From a virus: a stretch of DNA of 6,578 bases. A program made the translations under genes and the position numbers. The stretch's first letter is position 1. The number at the start of each line of letters is the position of its first letter. The stretch covers positions 1 through 6,578 of IMG/VR virus record IMGVR_UViG_3300022493_000042; one strand, given 5' to 3'. Under the pieces are notes generated by a model. The model saw only the letters and a list, made by a program, of their open reading frames with translations, searched no databases and was not told the DNA's origin. Of the stretch, positions 1 through 6,578 are shown piece after piece.

Positions 1-127
1 ATTACGCCCGATGTCTACATATATCAGTTGCGGGCTATTTACTCTCGCATACACTCTCGCAAACTTGGTCGGTTTTACGACTGGTGCAACGATCACCCCG
101 ATAATTTGCCTCAGGCTATTAATGTAG
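1..127. repeat. Terminal redundancy: 127 nt identical to 6452..6578. The window wraps around a circular genome of about 6451 nt.
   Basis: Direct comparison of the first 127 and last 127 bases shows they are identical. The repeat stops exactly at the window edges. Confidence 0.95.
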
Positions 128-384
128 ACCCTTTCGCTCTTACAGATGTGCACCTCGGTGTACTGTGTAGCTCCGCTCTCTCGTCTTATTTCGGATACGA
201 TTTAGATGAGTGTCCTGATAATGACGACTTGCGTCGTCGCTCGTTTGATGAATCTGGATATCTGACCCACGTAGGCAGATATTCAAAGCTTTCGGATGAC
301 CGTGTGAAGCGTAAAAAGTTAAATGACTATCGCAAAGGTCTTAATGTGATGAAAATTTTTGTTTCACCTCATAATAATAATTAA
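1..384 (+). CDS. VP4: C-terminal 127 codons of the replication initiator Rep (VP4-like). It continues the ORF that begins at 5189 and runs off the window end. Stop TAA at 382-384.
   Basis: The frame is continuous with 5189..6578 through the 127-nt overlap; the codon at 6452 equals the codon at 1. The first stop in that frame is at 382-384. The ORF track starts this piece at an internal TTG only because the true start lies across the circular junction. Confidence 0.8.
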   Translation: MTPDVYIYQLRAIYSRIHSRKLGRFYDWCNDHPDNLPQAINVDPFALTDVHLGVLCSSALSSYFGYDLDECPDNDDLRRRSFDESGYLTHVGRYSKLSDDRVKRKKLNDYRKGLNVMKIFVSPHNNN

Positions 385-386
385 CT

Positions 387-2366
387 ATGGCTCAAAAGCT
401 TTTTGGCGTCAATAAGCCAAACACTAATCTGAGGAAGAATGTGTTTGACCTATCCGCCACTAACAAATTTACGCTCAGTGCCGGGATGCTCGTCCCTTGT
501 CTTGTGCGTGAATTGAACCCCGGTGAAAAGGTAGAGTTATCTCTTGCCTCAATCACTCGTGCACAACCGCTCAATACTGCTGCGTTCGTCAGAATGAATC
601 AGTATTATCACGCCTTCTTCGTGCCCTATAAGCAATTGTGGTCTCCCTGGGATAATTTTATAAACGGCGTGGATTATCGTCAGTCCACTCGTGCTCTCAA
701 GGCTGGAGAAAGTATTCCCGCTTTTACCTTTAAGGAGCTTTATACCCAGCTCTTTAAGGCTGGTATTCTTGCGGGTAAGGATGCTCGTGAAGGTGAGTTT
801 TCGTCTAAAAACGCCCTTGACGCTCTCGGCTACTCTTATGTCTACGGCATTTCTCGTCTTTTGGATATGCTCGGTTATGGGTTTGAAATTACCATCAAGC
901 CCAGCGACTATATCACTAATTGGGAGAAAGCAGATGATGATGATGTGTTTGTTGAAGGTCGTGGCGGTCACGTTGGTGAGTACCATTTTGACCATAGAGG
1001 CAAAGTGCCTACTAAGCAAAAAACGCCCCCTCCTGCTTCTGATATCCGAGTGCGTATTGCTTCGTTTGCAGATTTCTGCAAGTTCGTGTTTAACAATGCT
1101 AAGGTGTTCCTTGGTGTCAATAATACGGCTTATGCGTCATCTGCCCCAGCTGTGCAGGCTAAGCTTACTCAGCTTATTTACGATTGCTTCGGAGATTTCC
1201 GCTTTAACCCTTTCCGACTTCTTGCCTATCAAAAAATCTACTATGATTTTTATCGTAGACAGGACTACGAAGGTTCAAAGCCCGAACACTATAATATAGA
1301 CGATTTCAACGGTGACCTTATGAGTATGACCGACACTCAGCGTCTCCTTGGTATCTTCCAGCTTCGCTACAGATGGCTTGCAAAAGACTACTTTACAGGC
1401 GTTGTCCCCTCGGAGCTCTTCGGTACAGAAAATCTTGTAGCTAAGAATAATGTTAATAGCTTGCTCCCCGAGTTCCGCCAGGCTATGACTAATTCGTTTA
1501 ATGGTGCAGATAGTGCTACTATCTCGTCTATGCTCTCAGATGGTCGTGGTGTAAAGCTCGGTCATAATGCAGAGATTTCTACTCGCTCTATTCGTGCTAT
1601 CTACGCTATTGAGAAGCTTATGCGTCTCACTCGTAGAGCTGGTGACTACGATTATATCTCACAGACCTCCGCTCATTATGGTGTTGATGTCCCTAAAGGT
1701 CGTGGTGAAGAGGTGTCATTTTTAGGCGGTTGGTCGTCTCAGATTGATATCTCCGAGGTTGTCACTACTGCCCTCACCGAAAAGGGAGACCCCGCCCAAA
1801 TCTATGGTAGAGGCGTAGGCACTCAACAGGGAAAGGATATCAATTATGAGGCTAAGGAACACGGTCTTTTGATGGTCATTACGTCTATCGTCCCCGATAG
1901 CGATTACTCTGGCGTTGGTATGAATAACTTTAACGCTAAATTGTATCGTGGTGACTTCTTCCATCCTGAATTTCAGGATTTAGGACTGCAACCTATTATG
2001 TCTCACGAGTTGGCTTTTCAACCTCATAAGCTCAATCGTTCTGCTACGGATAAGTTCGGCGGTTCTGTCCTCCTCGGTTACGCTCCTCGTTATGCAGAGT
2101 ATAAGACTGCTTGTGATGAGTTGCACGGTGAGTTTAGAGCTGGTAAGGAGTTCTCCCCCTGGGTATCGTCTATCAAGGTGTTGGATAATGCTTTCTTCAC
2201 CTCATCAGGTATCAAGCCCTCGGCTCTCCTGGTGTCTCCCTCTCAGTTGGATAGTATCTTCTCAGTCCGTTTTGACGGTACGGAGAGTACCGACCAATTT
2301 ATGTGCGTGTGTAATAATATTTGTAAAATCATCCGCCCAATGTCAGTGACAGGGCAAAATCTCTAA
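387..2366 (+). CDS. VP1: Major capsid protein VP1 (F-like), 659 aa
   Basis: The N-terminus MAQKLFGVNKPNTNLRKNVFDLSATNKFTLSAGMLVPCLV has the R-N-x-FDLS...K-T...G-x-L-P signature of Microviridae major capsid proteins. It is 659 aa long, starts 2 nt after the Rep stop, and is the longest ORF in the window. Confidence 0.9.
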   Translation: MAQKLFGVNKPNTNLRKNVFDLSATNKFTLSAGMLVPCLVRELNPGEKVELSLASITRAQPLNTAAFVRMNQYYHAFFVPYKQLWSPWDNFINGVDYRQSTRALKAGESIPAFTFKELYTQLFKAGILAGKDAREGEFSSKNALDALGYSYVYGISRLLDMLGYGFEITIKPSDYITNWEKADDDDVFVEGRGGHVGEYHFDHRGKVPTKQKTPPPASDIRVRIASFADFCKFVFNNAKVFLGVNNTAYASSAPAVQAKLTQLIYDCFGDFRFNPFRLLAYQKIYYDFYRRQDYEGSKPEHYNIDDFNGDLMSMTDTQRLLGIFQLRYRWLAKDYFTGVVPSELFGTENLVAKNNVNSLLPEFRQAMTNSFNGADSATISSMLSDGRGVKLGHNAEISTRSIRAIYAIEKLMRLTRRAGDYDYISQTSAHYGVDVPKGRGEEVSFLGGWSSQIDISEVVTTALTEKGDPAQIYGRGVGTQQGKDINYEAKEHGLLMVITSIVPDSDYSGVGMNNFNAKLYRGDFFHPEFQDLGLQPIMSHELAFQPHKLNRSATDKFGGSVLLGYAPRYAEYKTACDELHGEFRAGKEFSPWVSSIKVLDNAFFTSSGIKPSALLVSPSQLDSIFSVRFDGTESTDQFMCVCNNICKIIRPMSVTGQNL

Positions 2367-2369
2367 GCT

Positions 2370-2822
2370 ATGCCTAACAGAAGCTATCTCAAGCGAACTC
2401 AGCCCTATATTGATGTAGAGGTGCAGGTTTCAGGTAATGATGCCCACGATATGGCTATAGGTGTCTACGATCCTGAATATGTCGCTATGCTTTACCCTAC
2501 GGACGCTCGTAGCGGTTTCCCGACTTCTGACCTTGCACGTGTGCTCTCTTCTGAGGTATCACAGGCTGATAAGGAGCGTATCCTTAATCGTCTTCAGAGA
2601 GAGGATGGACAGTTCTTGCCCTCCGACCTCACCGATGAGGATGTGTTTACTCTTGTACCTCCCCGCTTCGTGCTTGGCGACCAGGTCAATATCCAGCGCT
2701 GGCGTGACTATCTCGCTTCCGATGTCTTGCCATTTATGCGAGACGAGGTTAAGGCTATGGATGTAGTCCCCGATGTCAATTCTCCTTCTAACTCTAACGA
2801 TAATAACAATGGCACAGAATGA
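2370..2822 (+). CDS. 150-aa acidic protein, possibly an internal scaffolding protein (VP3-like). Function not established.
   Basis: The ATG lies 3 nt after the VP1 stop and the T-ending codon usage matches neighbouring genes. It is D/E-rich with an Asn/Ser-rich tail. Size and position between VP1 and VP2 match gokushovirus VP3, but no diagnostic motif was recognised. Confidence 0.5.
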   Translation: MPNRSYLKRTQPYIDVEVQVSGNDAHDMAIGVYDPEYVAMLYPTDARSGFPTSDLARVLSSEVSQADKERILNRLQREDGQFLPSDLTDEDVFTLVPPRFVLGDQVNIQRWRDYLASDVLPFMRDEVKAMDVVPDVNSPSNSNDNNNGTE

Positions 2823-2991
2823 AAACAAGCACTCTAAGTTGCTTTCTATCCTGATTTTCGTAGTACAGTTGCTTCCTACGATTATTCGGTTTCTTGGCAG
2901 TCTTGGTAAGGGATCTCCCGACCCTGTGGACGTACCTACGCCCGATACTCCTACGGATATTACTGATACTCATTTTCCTGACCCTCATTAA
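2809..2991 (+). CDS. Small membrane protein, 60 aa from ATG 2809 (72 aa from ATG 2773). Holin-like candidate.
   Basis: MAQNENKHSK precedes a 22-residue hydrophobic helix (LLSILIFVVQLLPTIIRFLGSL), followed by an acidic Pro/Asp/Thr-rich tail. There are two in-frame Met codons (2773 and 2809). The upstream one adds a short hydrophobic segment (SILLLTLTIIT) and overlaps the end of the preceding ORF. It ends 12 nt before VP2. Confidence 0.4.
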   Translation: MAQNENKHSKLLSILIFVVQLLPTIIRFLGSLGKGSPDPVDVPTPDTPTDITDTHFPDPH

Positions 2992-3002
2992 GTGTAGTCA
3001 AT

Positions 3003-4124
3003 ATGGCACTCCTTGAAACAGGAATAACTGCGGGCACCTCCTTAATTGGAGGTGTCCTCGGCTATTTTGGACAAAAATCTGCGAATGCAGAAGCTCTCAA
3101 GCGAATGCGAGAGCAAAACGATTTCGCTGAGCGAATGTGGAATAAAGGTAACGAATATAACACTCCTTACGAGCAACGTAAGAGGTACGAACTCGCTGGT
3201 ATTAATCCGTATCTCGCTCTTGGAAATATTCAGGCTGGTAATGCTCAAGGGAGCGTTACCCCCGCTCCTCCTGCTCCTGTTGGAAACGCTGGTGCGTTTC
3301 TTGGTTCAGGTGCAAATCAGGCTGTAAATGCTTACTTGCAGAATCAGCTTATATCCTCTCAGGTTGAGAAAAATCTTGCCGATGCCGACGCTGTGCGTAC
3401 TGATACTCCCTTTATCGGTCGTCGCAATGAGGCGGATATCGCCTCTACGGAAGCAAGCACGGAGAATACTCGTGCTAAAACTGATTTGGATAGAGCGAAT
3501 ACGCTTGTTGCTACGGCTAATCTTGACCGTCTTAAACAGATGACCCCTGTAGAAGTACAGTTAATGCAGGCTAACGTGGAAAATGTTACTGCTAATACGT
3601 CTCTTACCAAGTTGCAGGAGAAGATACAAGATTGGGAGTTCCGCTATATTAAGCCCCTGGAGGCTCAGGAGATTAAAGCACGTATCTCTCAAGCCTATGC
3701 GACTATTGGTTATCTTGTGGCTCAGCAACGTTTATCCGTTGCTCAGGCTGGTTTGGTTGCTAAAATGACGCTTACGGAAATTCAGCGAGAAAAAGGTGTC
3801 CGCTTGGATAATATGCTTAAGCAAGACGACTTCTCTCGCCGTGATGTAGACTTTTGGACTGAAATGGAGAATAAGCGTGCACAGACTAAGTACCTTAACT
3901 CTCAGTCCGATAAGACTGATGACGATAATGAACGTGCTTGGATGGGTTTCGTTATGGATTTATTTAGTACAGGTGCTTCTATGGCTATGCCTGCTCCTTT
4001 TGGTGTTGGTCCTGGTGCAGCTGGTTTTACTGGAGGTATCCCTAAAACAGGTACATTCCGTACTCCTCCGCCTGCTCCTCGTCCTACTCCTCCTCGTCCT
4101 CGAGGTATGCCTAATCGTAGATAG
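3003..4124 (+). CDS. VP2: Minor capsid / DNA pilot protein VP2 (H-like), 373 aa
   Basis: The motif NEYNTPYEQRKRYELAGINPYLALGN matches the conserved VP2 signature of gokushovirus-like phages. A long Ala/Gln/Thr-rich predicted coiled-coil lies in the middle, and a Gly- and Pro-rich basic C-terminus (PPPAPRPTPPRPRGMPNRR) follows. Confidence 0.85.
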   Translation: MALLETGITAGTSLIGGVLGYFGQKSANAEALKRMREQNDFAERMWNKGNEYNTPYEQRKRYELAGINPYLALGNIQAGNAQGSVTPAPPAPVGNAGAFLGSGANQAVNAYLQNQLISSQVEKNLADADAVRTDTPFIGRRNEADIASTEASTENTRAKTDLDRANTLVATANLDRLKQMTPVEVQLMQANVENVTANTSLTKLQEKIQDWEFRYIKPLEAQEIKARISQAYATIGYLVAQQRLSVAQAGLVAKMTLTEIQREKGVRLDNMLKQDDFSRRDVDFWTEMENKRAQTKYLNSQSDKTDDDNERAWMGFVMDLFSTGASMAMPAPFGVGPGAAGFTGGIPKTGTFRTPPPAPRPTPPRPRGMPNRR

Positions 4125-4125
4125 T

Positions 4126-4251
4126 ATGCTTCTGTATATCGTCTCCTCGGTGCTCTTTGTAGCTCTCGTCTTCGGTATCTCGTGTGCCTGGTGTAGTGCG
4201 CTCTCTAACTGCTATGCCAAGAGTGCAGACCCCCCTAAACCGACTGCATAG
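4126..4251 (+). CDS. 41-aa single-transmembrane peptide (MLLYIVSSVLFVALVFGISCAWCSALSNCYAKSADPPKPTA). Possible membrane or lysis accessory protein.
   Basis: The ATG lies 1 nt after the VP2 stop (TAGtATG), i.e. translationally coupled. About 25 consecutive hydrophobic residues are followed by a short polar tail. The stop is immediately followed by a hairpin. Translated by hand from the sequence; it is the real tail of the otherwise spurious track ORF 3877..4251. Confidence 0.35.
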   Translation: MLLYIVSSVLFVALVFGISCAWCSALSNCYAKSADPPKPTA

Positions 4252-4253
4252 CC

Positions 4254-4269
4254 CGTAACTCACGTTACG
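4254..4269 (+). terminator. Short hairpin CGTAAC-tcac-GTTACG (6-bp stem, 4-nt loop) 3 nt after the last structural-gene stop. Possible transcript end or processing structure.
   Basis: A perfect 6-bp inverted repeat is seen directly. No U-tract follows it, so it is not a canonical intrinsic terminator. Confidence 0.2.
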
Positions 4270-4350
4270 TTCGGAGCGTACTGCCCCGACTATCATCCAT
4301 CTAACTGCTCGTACCTGTCGTTTGACCCCCTAAAGTCACTGCGGTATAAA

Positions 4351-4415
4351 AGAGGTATAGGCGTATGACAATAAGCGACCAAAGGGAAGCGCCATTGCCA
4401 TACGAATATACCTCT
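4351..4415. repeat. Long imperfect inverted repeat: AGAGGTATAGGCGTATG (4351-4367) pairs with CATACGAATATACCTCT (4399-4415), 15/17 bp, around a ~31-nt loop. GGTATA / TATACC direct repeats sit within each arm.
   Basis: Seen directly. Arm 1 contains GGTATA twice (4344-4349 and 4354-4359). Arm 2 contains TATACC twice (4407-4412 and 4415-4420). It lies in the only sizeable non-coding region of the genome. Confidence 0.55.
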
Positions 4416-4514
4416 ATACCTTTGCGGTGCTTTAGTGGACAAATGCCAGGTACACGCTATTAGATGATAGTCGTGCAGTAGCTTCGGAGTTGCCCCTGAT
4501 GTTTCCCATTTCTC

Positions 4515-4550
4515 GGCGCAATAACGTAGTGCGCCCTACAAGCTTGATAT
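4515..4550 (+). promoter_or_regulatory. GC hairpin GGCGC-aataacgtagt-GCGCC (4515-4535) followed by CTTGATAT (4543-4550), which resembles the phiX174 gene A nick-site core CAACTTG^ATATT. Candidate Rep recognition or nick site.
   Basis: A perfect 5-bp GC stem, and an 8-nt identity to the phiX174 origin core. An 8-mer match in 6.5 kb is not by itself significant. Confidence 0.25.
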
Positions 4551-4612
4551 CTCTAAGGAAACATCATAACAGTCTAACCTACCCCCCTCGGAAATAGCCA
4601 CTTATAAAAACG

Positions 4613-4645
4613 TTTGGCGTTTCCGAGAAAAAGTATATATCTTTG
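4613..4645 (+). promoter_or_regulatory. Bacteroidetes-type promoter candidate: TTTG (-33-like, 4613-4616), 21-nt spacer, TAtcTTTG (-7 consensus TAnnTTTG, 4638-4645), just upstream of the lysozyme ATG at 4650.
   Basis: Motif spacing matches the sigma-A(Bfr) promoter architecture. No gene in the genome has a Shine-Dalgarno sequence upstream of its start. A second TAccTTTG lies at 4417-4424. Confidence 0.3.
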
Positions 4646-4649
4646 CGCT

Positions 4650-5186
4650 ATGGAATTGCTCGCTACCTATATAGACCAGCTGAAAGCCTTTGAGGGCTTT
4701 CGTTCTATGGCTTACCTCCCAAAAGGTGAGCCTGCGTCTGAGTATCTAACCATTGGTTATGGTACACGCCTGCCAAGGACAAAAGCTCTTGCGCTGTCTC
4801 CTATGGATGAGCAAGATGCGTCCTACTATCTTAATCAGTCTCTTTCTGAGATTACAAAATTTGTCCGTAGTTCTTTGCAGGCTATACCTTATACGCTCTC
4901 AGACGCTCAGTTTACTGCCCTGGTAGACTTTTGTTATAACTGTGGCACAGGCAACTATAAGCGTTCCACTCTGTATAAGATACTCAAGACTGTACGCTTT
5001 ACTGATGAAGATTTGAGACTTCATCCTCGTGATGAGTATGTTTCGGCAAAGGTTGAGGCTATTTGCTCAGAGTTTATGCGGTGGAACAAGAGCGGAGGCA
5101 AAGTCCTCCCAGGTCTTGTGACCCGCTGTAATTGGCGTGCCTACTGCTGGCGTTCTCGTGCTGTTGATTCACTCTATGCTAAATAG
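4650..5186 (+). CDS. Phage lysozyme, GH24 family (P22 gp19 / T4 e-like endolysin), about 178 aa from ATG 4650
   Basis: IDQLKAFEGFRSMAYL...EYLTIGYGT carries the catalytic Glu and the TIGYG motif. LSDAQFTALVDFCYNCGTGNYKRSTLYKIL and FMRWNKSGGKVLPGLVTRC match the conserved C-terminal blocks of P22/lambda-family lysozymes (F.RWNKAGGKVL.GL.RRR). There is no N-terminal signal or SAR segment. The TTG at 4614 given by the track is an unlikely start; the ATG at 4650 aligns with the family N-terminus. Confidence 0.88.
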   Translation: MELLATYIDQLKAFEGFRSMAYLPKGEPASEYLTIGYGTRLPRTKALALSPMDEQDASYYLNQSLSEITKFVRSSLQAIPYTLSDAQFTALVDFCYNCGTGNYKRSTLYKILKTVRFTDEDLRLHPRDEYVSAKVEAICSEFMRWNKSGGKVLPGLVTRCNWRAYCWRSRAVDSLYAK

Positions 5187-5188
5187 AT

Positions 5189-6578
5189 ATGTCTGAGTTC
5201 TCTTTATACGGTTGTTTTGCTCCGAGGAAGGTGTTTAACAAATACCTCGGTCGTGAAATTGTCGCTAATTGCGGAAAGTGTGCATATTGTCGCTCGCTCC
5301 GCTCTTTTGACCTTACCAGCCGTGTACAAAGAGAATTTGTAAATCAGGGTGCAAATACTGCACTCTTTATAACTTTGACTTATGACAACGACCACCTCCC
5401 TGTTTATCAGTACAACGGGCGTTCCCGCAAATGGCATTCAAACTGTGGTTATCCCGACTTCGGTGATATCCCCGAACAGTACGTGTCCGATTATCCCGCT
5501 CCCGTAGGTTATGATATTGATGCTAAAATGCCACTGCGTGCGCTCGGCACTCGCTCGGCTTCACGCTTTAAGATGCGCCCTGCGTTCGCTCATCTTTGCT
5601 ACCCCGATGTGCAAAAGTACATTAGCCTGTTGCGTGCTAAGTTTTTTGCTATCTGCGCTCGCTACGATGATAGCCCTTTACATATCGCTTACGAGAATAC
5701 TGATTTGACCTATGAGACATTTTCCCTGCGTTACGCTGTGTGCGGAGAATACGGACCCTCTTCGTTCCGCCCGCATTATCACGTTATTATTTGGCTCAAC
5801 CACCAGGCAAACGATAGACAACTTTCAGCACTCTCGCAAATCTTTTCTAAGAGTTGGACGCTTGGTAATATCGATGTGCAGACCGTTACCTCGGATGGTG
5901 TTTCAGGATATTTGGCTGACTACGTTACAGGCGTTAATGGCATTCCGCCTATACTACAAGGTAGAAGAGTACGTCCCTGCTTTCATTTCTCGCAAAGCCC
6001 TACTATCGGTATGCTCCGCTTGGGTGAAGATGAGGTACAGAAAATACTCTTTACAGGAGATGCTATCAGACGTAGATTTGATGACAGACGACAGTCTGTT
6101 ATTGTTGAGGAGCTTCCCCTTGCGACTCTCAATAAGTACTTCCCAAAGTGTAAAGGATATAGCACAGATGATTTTGCGCGCCTCCGTTATGTGTATGGAT
6201 ACGCTTACCGTTACTTTCAGGAGCGAGGACTTACCCACCGCCCCGATGAGGTAGATGCTCTTCGTCTTGTAGATGTCCCCTTTCCTGTGCGGTTGATGTC
6301 TGCTGATGCGTCAAGATATTACCGTGTTGCTCCTCGTCTCCTCGGCTCGTCTTTCAATTTCCCCGACAATGTTCGTGCTGGTCTTTGGACGTGGTGCCGT
6401 GCAGATAGGTACGCTTCGCTACAGTGTTATAGGATGTGTGTTAAGTATGGTATTACGCCCGATGTCTACATATATCAGTTGCGGGCTATTTACTCTCGCA
6501 TACACTCTCGCAAACTTGGTCGGTTTTACGACTGGTGCAACGATCACCCCGATAATTTGCCTCAGGCTATTAATGTAG
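5189..6578 (+). CDS. VP4: Replication initiation protein Rep (VP4 / gene A-like, HUH rolling-circle endonuclease), N-terminal 463 codons. The ORF runs through the window end and continues at 1..384, about 548 aa in total.
   Basis: Translated by hand: MSEFSLYGCFAPRKVFNKYLGREIVANCGKCAYCRSL...ALFITLTYDNDHLP (motif I-like), RPHYHVIIW (HUH motif, 5774-5782), and GYLADYVTG (two Tyr spaced i, i+4 as in phiX174 A Y343/Y347, 5909-5923). It is the first ATG after an in-frame stop at 5180-5182 and starts 2 nt after the lysozyme stop. The track omits it because no stop is reached inside the window. Confidence 0.88.
   Translation, partial: MSEFSLYGCFAPRKVFNKYLGREIVANCGKCAYCRSLRSFDLTSRVQREFVNQGANTALFITLTYDNDHLPVYQYNGRSRKWHSNCGYPDFGDIPEQYVSDYPAPVGYDIDAKMPLRALGTRSASRFKMRPAFAHLCYPDVQKYISLLRAKFFAICARYDDSPLHIAYENTDLTYETFSLRYAVCGEYGPSSFRPHYHVIIWLNHQANDRQLSALSQIFSKSWTLGNIDVQTVTSDGVSGYLADYVTGVNGIPPILQGRRVRPCFHFSQSPTIGMLRLGEDEVQKILFTGDAIRRRFDDRRQSVIVEELPLATLNKYFPKCKGYSTDDFARLRYVYGYAYRYFQERGLTHRPDEVDALRLVDVPFPVRLMSADASRYYRVAPRLLGSSFNFPDNVRAGLWTWCRADRYASLQCYRMCVKYGITPDVYIYQLRAIYSRIHSRKLGRFYDWCNDHPDNLPQAINV
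6452..6578. repeat. Second copy of the 127-nt terminal redundancy (equals 1..127). Marks the circular junction.
   Basis: Exact identity to 1..127. Confidence 0.95.

Follow-up and report, generated by a model that had tools for sequence, protein, structure and literature searches.

A predicted GH24 lysozyme encoded directly upstream of Rep in a microvirus genome of probable human oral or upper-airway origin

The IMG/VR virus record IMGVR_UViG_3300022493_000042 (positions 1 to 6,578; hereafter the window, meaning the whole stretch of 6,578 nucleotides that was analysed) is a microvirus genome, and its open reading frame (ORF) at 4650-5186, directly upstream of the replication gene Rep, was found to encode a protein assigned by sequence and structure prediction to the GH24 lysozymes, a predicted muramidase. 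With moderate confidence, this protein is taken to be a functional, horizontally acquired endolysin that would be co-expressed with Rep, would escape the cytoplasm once a small phage membrane protein has breached the inner membrane, and would benefit the phage without being essential to it. Judged from gene content, the novelty is the type of enzyme (GH24) in a known slot, and not a new mode of lysis.

Family, fold and catalytic residues of the lysozyme

The lysozyme ORF was found to be intact on the plus strand, from the ATG at 4650 to the TAG at 5184-5186 (537 nucleotides, 178 amino acids). A TTG start at 4614, which would add 12 residues, was rejected; the added stretch sits within a conserved promoter-like motif and shows no conservation of a coding kind. 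The protein was found to match Pfam PF00959 (Phage_lysozyme) with E=1.5e-24 and 87.1 bits (cut-off 22.3), the sole Pfam match of the window copy, followed by a match to PHROG 7 'endolysin' with E=1.8e-28, and a phmmer search against PDB sequences returned GH24 lysozymes and endolysins exclusively. The AlphaFold2 model, made with 25 homologues, had a mean predicted local distance difference test score (pLDDT) of 91.4 and a predicted template modelling score (pTM) of 0.86, and was found with Foldseek to have the two-lobe alpha/beta fold of T4 lysozyme. The best Foldseek matches in the PDB were 6et6 and 9kbs (template modelling score, TM-score, by target length 0.83-0.84), followed by 8app, 7m5i, R21, P22 and T4 lysozyme, and every one of the top 21 matches (E<=1e-3) was a GH24 lysozyme, muramidase or endolysin. 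A preliminary description of this DNA, made from the sequence alone, had named a P22/T4-type lysozyme in a microvirus and had proposed a PF00959 search and a structure prediction as checks; the family matches and the confident model bear it out, and the catalytic Glu is kept in a proper alignment.

Glu15 in the FEG motif and Thr34 in the TIGYG motif were found to be invariant in the alignment of the 25 homologues, and correspond to Glu11 and Thr26 of T4 lysozyme in a MAFFT alignment with a T4 sequence entered by hand. Glu15 is the predicted general acid. The protein was found to be a bare catalytic domain, with no structural or capsid-binding domain in Pfam or in the model. The median pairwise ratio of nonsynonymous to synonymous substitution rates (dN/dS) over 10 genomes was 0.18 for the lysozyme, 0.19 for Rep and 0.20 for the pilot protein VP2, and the low value indicates that the lysozyme is under purifying selection.

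The cytoplasmic GH24 enzymes of tailed phages (T4 E, P22 gp19, the catalytic domain of phi29/Nf gp15, AcLys (6et6), PHAb10/11 (9kbq, 9kbs) and the BT-TP2 endolysin) were found to share with the window protein the fold (TM-score up to 0.84), the Glu of FEG, the Thr of TIGxG and 33-40% identity, as well as a length of about 150-180 amino acids and the absence of an export signal, by which export would depend on a holin. Unlike these enzymes, the window protein contains a 4-residue insertion at the loop of T4 Asp20 and a clade-specific helical insertion of about 20 residues (residues ~115-136), followed by an unusually cationic and aromatic last helix (RCxWRAxxWRSR) where an RRxxE helix is usual in the tailed-phage proteins. 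Its gene moreover belongs to a single-stranded DNA phage, and neither a holin nor a spanin is recognisable beside it.

Genome context, distribution and the slot ahead of Rep

The window was found to contain an exact terminal direct repeat of 127 nucleotides (1-127 = 6452-6578); its identical ends indicate a circular genome that was assembled past its own start, with a true length of 6,451 nucleotides. The long ORFs all lie on the plus strand. An F-type capsid protein, a pilot protein and Rep, the genes by which Microviridae are recognised, were found in the order VP1-VP2-VP4 on this small circle, and the Rep homologues in the contigs of the lysozyme-bearing clade match PF23343. The features of the window are as follows.

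387-2366, plus strand: Phage_F major capsid protein (VP1), Pfam E=6e-32
2370-2822, plus strand: ORF of 150 amino acids between VP1 and ORF-A
2809-2991, plus strand: ORF-A, 60 amino acids, between the 150-amino-acid ORF and VP2; one hydrophobic helix with a conserved Pro, acidic Pro/Thr-rich tail
3003-4124, plus strand: DNA pilot protein (VP2), PHROG 8689
4126-4251, plus strand: ORF-B, 41 amino acids, unannotated; single hydrophobic segment, motif WCxxL[ST]NCY
4272-4566, plus strand: structured non-coding region; rod-like hairpin of about 215 nucleotides (4272-4486) and second hairpin domain (4497-4566)
4613-4645, plus strand: promoter-like motif TTTG-N21-TAtcTTTG, ending 4 nucleotides before the lysozyme ATG
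4650-5186, plus strand: predicted GH24 lysozyme, 178 amino acids (PF00959, PHROG 7, AlphaFold2/Foldseek, dN/dS)
5189-6578, continuing at 128-384 of the circle, plus strand: Rep (VP4), 548 amino acids, PHROG 942 replication initiation protein, E=7e-35

A search of 5.8 billion proteins returned 20 clusters of the lysozyme at 67-96% identity, beyond which the next matches dropped to 38% identity or less. The contigs of these clusters measure 1.0-9.3 kb, mostly 6.1-6.6 kb, and nearly all of them do not exceed a microvirus genome in size. The order VP1, 150-amino-acid ORF, ORF of about 60 amino acids, VP2, gap of about 500 nucleotides, lysozyme and Rep was found on all nine independent full-length contigs of the clade (seven ENA/Logan metagenome assemblies, OR148992.1 from GenBank and L093 from IMG/VR). 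A tenth contig, L092 of IMG/VR, was consistent with this order, its lysozyme being truncated at the contig end. An assembly chimera with a fragment of a tailed phage or bacterium, for which nothing speaks except the general risk attached to metagenomic contigs, is refuted for practical purposes by the same order on independent ENA, Logan, GenBank and IMG/VR assemblies; the lysozyme was also found to co-diverge with the rest of the genome and to be unremarkable in base composition, so that the probability left to a chimera is negligible.

In GenBank, the closest relative OR148992.1 was found to contain an orthologue at 4295-4831, 95.5% identical and labelled 'peptidase M15', and PV594040.1 contains an orthologue that is unannotated. 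The label names the wrong family, since the window copy matches only Phage_lysozyme in Pfam; the gene had thus been annotated as a wall hydrolase before, but not as the right one. It was not discussed by the depositors of OR148992 in their paper (PMC10537320). A search of IMG/VR with the lysozyme alignment gave 574 matches; the 80 matches listed were all at most 40% identical, and none of these 80 was found with a microvirus capsid or Rep detectable by the window proteins. The two true clade members in IMG/VR lay outside these 80 and were recovered through VP1. The protein P0023 (153 amino acids, on a 5.9-kb contig), which had been suspected to belong to a second microvirus, was rejected for its non-microviral gene content.

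The GenBank record PV594042.1 (L174; VP1 77% identical) was found to align with the window up to 4651 and to resume at 5187, and lacks exactly the 537-nucleotide ORF. At this junction (L174 545-660 compared with window 4560-5230), the window reads TATCTTTGCGCT, followed by the ORF from ATG to TAG and by ATATGTCT, whereas L174 reads TACCTTTGTGGTATATGTCT, with an AT microhomology. In neighbour-joining trees of VP1 and of Rep, L174 was nested inside the lysozyme-bearing clade, and L084, L086 and L088, which contain the gene, branched earlier; this topology is most simply read as a secondary loss in L174. No lysozyme was found in the nearest outgroups, Dulem virus 259 and 235 (L172 and L173; VP1 47%), which puts the acquisition of the gene at the root of the clade. 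A junction-specific pattern search of IMG/VR for further lysozyme-less relatives gave chance matches only, on large contigs. From these comparisons the lysozyme looks like a dispensable single-ORF cassette, and its precise loss in a nested lineage suggests that it is useful and not strictly required.

The neighbourhood of Rep was surveyed in 80 IMG/VR genomes retrieved with the window VP1. An ORF of the Peptidase_M15_3 type (one BLAST cluster, two representatives of which were scanned and both matched Peptidase_M15_3) was found in 64 of them, nearly always immediately ahead of Rep, and an ORF with DUF5675 in the same position in three. A GH24 gene was found in two, both of them members of the clade (L092 and L093), and no recognisable wall hydrolase in the remaining eleven, several of which are incomplete contigs (4.2-5.6 kb). 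The homologue search in other microviruses, also proposed in the preliminary description, thus gave a divided answer: a wall hydrolase ahead of Rep is routine in this lineage, but the GH24 class is unusual.

In the sister group L094-L096 (VP1 about 41% identical), a DUF5675 protein of 130 amino acids was observed (for example at 1867-2256 of L095, Pfam E=4e-28). It falls into PHROG 1501, which is unannotated, and has no sequence match in the PDB; on these grounds it is not claimed as a wall hydrolase, and it may represent a third type of gene in the slot ahead of Rep.

Among human-associated Alpavirinae and Gokushovirinae, 11 were reported to contain Peptidase_M15_3 genes, located between VP2 and VP4 in four of six Alpavirinae; horizontal acquisition and a role as endolysin were proposed for these genes (Roux et al. 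2012, PMC3394797). Lysis-associated peptidases and amidases were later described as recurrent accessory genes of microviruses, whose gene uptake was stated not to go beyond peptidases and methyltransferases (Kirchberger et al. 2022, PMC9239249). M15 peptidases have also been reported in roseophage and Rhizobium microviruses. The lysozyme of the window resembles the M15_3 proteins of Alpavirinae and Gokushovirinae as a predicted peptidoglycan-degrading enzyme without a signal peptide, apparently acquired horizontally and proposed as an endolysin, in its slot in the interval between VP2 and VP4, and in its patchy presence and absence among related genomes. It differs from them in its fold, which is unrelated, and in the bond attacked: the M15_3 proteins are zinc peptidases that cut the peptide stem or cross-link, whereas the window protein has a glycosidase fold, with the glycan strand as predicted target. 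Both surveys name peptidases, amidases and methyltransferases as acquired genes, and lysozyme is unmentioned in them (PMC3394797, PMC9239249). No description of a GH24/PF00959 lysozyme in a microvirus was found in the open-access literature, a coverage within which absence is not proof.

The protein Gp7 of phage Ebor ('Tainavirinae') was found to degrade peptidoglycan and was described in 2025 as the first wall hydrolase from a single-stranded DNA phage to be verified by experiment (PMC11980548). Like the window lysozyme, it is a wall hydrolase of the accessory type, comes from a microvirus whose genome is larger than usual and resembles tailed-phage enzymes. In contrast to the window lysozyme, Gp7 is a different enzyme (HHpred match 6SSC) from a distant lineage that infects Rhodobacter, with an activity shown by experiment (PMC11980548); that of the lysozyme here is predicted. 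The premise of the preliminary description, that gokushovirus-type phages lack a recognised muralytic enzyme, is outdated for microviruses outside the phiX174 group in view of M15_3 (since 2012), of Ebor Gp7 and of the peptidase-bearing relatives. Its claim of novelty, a lysis strategy like that of double-stranded DNA phages acquired by a single-stranded one, is overstated in the same way; the theme was known and the class of enzyme differs.

Expression, export and role in lysis

The lysozyme stop codon was found to be followed by a 2-nucleotide spacer and the Rep ATG at 5189. The motif at 4613-4645 is the sole match in the window, on both strands, to TTTG-N17-23-TAnnTTTG (expected number 0.15), which we take to be the Bacteroides-type promoter consensus of Bacteroidota. 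Both of its elements were conserved in 10 of 10 aligned genomes of the clade, and in L174, which lacks the lysozyme, the motif stands immediately before Rep; this conservation and this position make the promoter call stronger than the pattern match alone. A scan of 4100-5300 for sigma-70 promoters and terminators gave no more matches than shuffled sequence. The likeliest arrangement would be a co-transcription of lysozyme and Rep with translation probably coupled, as the preliminary description had expected from the position immediately upstream of Rep.

The distance between motif and start codon was observed to vary within the clade. The TAtcTTTG element lies 4 nucleotides before the ATG in the subgroup of the window, which would give a leaderless or nearly leaderless transcript, and a leader of 20-40 nucleotides is present in L084, L086 and L088.

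The N-terminus of the lysozyme (MELLATYIDQLKAFEG) contains 14 residues before the catalytic Glu15 and no hydrophobic stretch, and the best 19-residue Kyte-Doolittle window reaches 1.01. The absence of a hydrophobic N-terminus together with a Glu at residue 15 indicates an endolysin of the cytoplasmic type, neither secreted nor of the signal-anchor-release (SAR) type, in agreement with the preliminary description. The SAR endolysins P1 Lyz and phage 21 R21 have the GH24 fold and were both among the structural matches; unlike the window protein, they contain an N-terminal signal-anchor-release segment before the Glu. Since neither a signal nor a SAR segment is present, the lysozyme would need a membrane lesion for access to the wall.

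Two small ORFs of the window were considered as the source of such a lesion. ORF-B starts 2 nucleotides past the VP2 stop codon; no gene lies closer upstream of the lysozyme, from which ORF-B is separated by about 400 nucleotides of structured DNA. It was found in 11 of 11 clade genomes, the lysozyme-less L174 included, with a median dN/dS of 0.27, and the changes between the window and OR148992.1 in its hydrophobic segment were mostly synonymous or conservative. ORF-B has no PHROG match and no detectable similarity to a known lysis protein; from its position and hydrophobic segment it is put forward as a candidate membrane-lesion protein, holin- or amurin-like. ORF-A was conserved in all clade genomes (a hypothetical protein in OR148992), with a median dN/dS of 0.38 and a median synonymous rate (dS) of 0.43, unusually low against 1.1-2.0 in the larger genes. 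A counterpart by position and motif was found in the lysozyme-less Dulem virus 259 and 235 (L172 2332-2520 and L173 2385-2573), where the helix looks amphipathic and not membrane-spanning. ORF-A is the weaker candidate membrane protein of the two, and is a core gene of the lineage unlinked to the lysozyme.

In most of the relatives that contain M15_3 (L100-L171), a strongly conserved small hydrophobic ORF with the C-terminal part MKSNNIWKIIIGAVSAALGYILNAIGL was found directly before the peptidase, followed by Rep; in L121, for example, the small ORF lies at 4108-4332 and the peptidase at 4329-4634. Other relatives were also found to contain a small hydrophobic ORF just after VP2, with the hydrolase present or absent. 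These genomes may repeatedly pair a small membrane protein and a wall hydrolase. The preliminary description had called for a separate holin-type partner; the part that stands is the need to rely on something for crossing the inner membrane, but a dedicated holin is not supported by two small ORFs that are both untied to the lysozyme.

On the favoured reading, a functional endolysin, the Bacteroidota-type promoter at 4613-4645 would drive one transcript from at or near the lysozyme ATG into Rep, and the lysozyme would build up harmlessly in the cytoplasm. A phage membrane protein, with ORF-B as the best candidate and ORF-A as a weaker one, would breach the inner membrane and let the lysozyme reach the murein, where it would cleave MurNAc-GlcNAc bonds, and the cell would burst. 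The gene would have been acquired horizontally as a single-ORF cassette between the promoter and the Rep start, in the slot usually held by M15_3, with a gain at the base of the clade and a precise loss in at least one nested lineage, and would improve lysis.

Several points weigh against this reading. The activity, the expression and the lysis role of the clade lysozymes are predictions. The position of T4 Asp20 was found to be non-acidic, being Leu23 in the HMMER alignment or Pro28 in the MAFFT alignment. The genome L174 is a single partial GenBank assembly and may be a defective variant or a misassembly. ORF-B is kept without the lysozyme and ORF-A has its counterpart in lysozyme-less outgroups, so that neither behaves as a dedicated holin, and this T-rich genome contains many hydrophobic off-frame ORFs. 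No spanin-like or lipobox-bearing ORF was recognised by manual inspection of the conserved ORFs, the host being presumably Gram-negative. The promoter motif is statistically weak when taken alone, with at least one match in 28 of 200 shuffles. The GTDB species representatives, scanned for prophage copies of the lysozyme, gave as sole match a 30%-identical protein in Oscillospiraceae and no host link.

The missing Asp bears on whether the protein is an enzyme at all, and the preliminary term 'canonical' holds for the fold, Glu15 and Thr34 but not for this position or for the 4- and ~20-residue insertions. A catalytically impaired protein might have been reused non-lytically, for example in wall binding or in interference with superinfection, and non-enzymatic proteins of the lysozyme fold do exist, SpmX being among the matches. 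The position is likewise without Asp in two annotated phage endolysins, Nf gp15 of the phi29 type (Pro) and the endolysin of Bacteroides phage BT-TP2 (Cys), so that the absence is not disqualifying. T4 lysozyme keeps activity as the D20C mutant, and gp15 of phi29 is active as a lysozyme. The 4-residue clade insertion at the Asp20 loop (residues ~24-27) contains an invariant Glu27, which may substitute for the Asp. With Glu15 and Thr34 invariant and purifying selection across the whole protein, an impaired lysozyme is improbable. An entry enzyme in or on the virion, which would digest peptidoglycan locally as the genome is delivered, in the manner of the virion-associated lysins known from tailed phages, appears slightly less probable still. 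Ebor Gp7 was found in virions at trace amounts (PMC11980548), but the window protein lacks any structural or capsid-binding part, is predicted to be co-transcribed with Rep and not with the capsid genes, and is dispensable in L174; a T=1 capsid with a 6.45-kb genome would also leave little room for it.

The strongest rival, though clearly the less probable one beside a functional endolysin, is that the lysozyme is a mere helper and that lysis is primarily brought about by an amurin of the phiX174 E type or by another membrane-active small protein such as ORF-B. The lysozyme would then speed up lysis or permit the lysis of slow-growing cells, for example in oral biofilm; phiX174 E requires growing cells for lysis. 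This is favoured by L174, which lost the lysozyme precisely, keeps ORF-B and has an apparently intact genome, by the nearest outgroups and the eleven surveyed relatives without a recognisable wall hydrolase, and by the recurrence of a small hydrophobic ORF after VP2 across the lineage regardless of the hydrolase. Some of those eleven contigs are incomplete, however, the lone lysozyme-less genome is perhaps defective, and ORF-B resembles no known lysis protein. A cytoplasmic lysozyme would moreover still need a membrane lesion, and amurins make none before lysis. The comparison with phiX174 protein E, an amurin that inhibits MraY, extends to microvirus lysis and to the small single-pass membrane proteins ORF-A and ORF-B, which could act comparably. 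Protein E differs in being a non-enzyme overprinted in gene D, with no sequence similarity found to ORF-A or ORF-B, and the genome described here also encodes a predicted GH24 muralytic enzyme.

Host, other features of the genome and significance

We take the lineage to be Alpavirinae-like, an informal placement from match lists and gene order. The VP1 tblastn match list contained five records with an organism name starting 'Parabacteroides', along with many oral and gut microviruses. The nearest GenBank relatives were OR148992.1 (human saliva, 90.7% nucleotide identity) followed by PV594040.1 and PV594042.1 (nasopharyngeal swabs), and the study that deposited OR148992 assigned its microviruses to Gokushovirinae, Alpavirinae and 'Pichivirinae' (spelling as there; PMC10537320). 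The virus is probably a microvirus of the human oral or upper-airway microbiota, with a Bacteroidota bacterium as probable host, and the promoter-like motif would also favour such a host under the consensus assumed above.

The structured region at 4272-4566 was found to exceed the VP2 coding sequence in nucleotide conservation. Its consensus fold contains 86 pairs with 95.8% of cells paired, and 24 of the 86 pairs were changed on both sides in a compensatory manner, against 3-5 in slid controls. The region has no Rfam match, and neither the Rfam scan nor the tRNA scan of the whole window gave a match. It may be a packaging signal or, as a guess, a complementary-strand origin.

Two further observations concern the neighbouring genes. 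Between the window and OR148992.1 the protein identity was 99.5% for VP1 and 93.5% for Rep, and merely 73% for VP2, which suggests that genomes otherwise near-identical have recombined or that the pilot protein evolves very rapidly. Within Rep, an alternative-frame ORF at 5712-6254 on the plus strand, with an ATG start and exactly 180 amino acids, recurs with unchanged length in each of the eight clade genomes examined, despite a Rep identity of only about 59% in the deepest pairs. The mean pairwise synonymous difference in the Rep frame was 0.28-0.39 precisely across this ORF and 0.63-0.78 elsewhere. The ORF has no Pfam match and is probably an overprinted gene, comparable to B and K inside A of phiX174.

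With the lysozyme, a predicted glycosidase joins the few genes that microviruses are known to have captured, which the 2022 survey limited to peptidases and methyltransferases, and the slot ahead of Rep would have been filled independently by different wall-degrading enzymes. The 'peptidase M15' label on the closest relative is due for correction. On the practical side, the protein would be a compact lysin without a signal sequence, with oral Bacteroidota as the probable target. Near relatives that either carry or lack precisely this ORF form a natural experiment on what an endolysin contributes to lysis by a single-stranded DNA phage, and also single out specific small membrane proteins as the possible missing partner in export or lysis. 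A broader and tentative proposal, which we hold to be possible but rather doubtful, is that lysis in these phages is modular: a constant small membrane effector (ORF-B here, the MKSNNIWKIIIGAVSAALGYILNAIGL peptide in the peptidase-bearing relatives) would act with a hot spot between promoter and Rep at which unrelated hydrolases (GH24, M15_3, perhaps DUF5675) are swapped as exact single-ORF cassettes. If this is true, single-stranded DNA phages would possess a minimal and evolvable system of a holin with interchangeable endolysins, and the small peptides would be a new class of lysis proteins.

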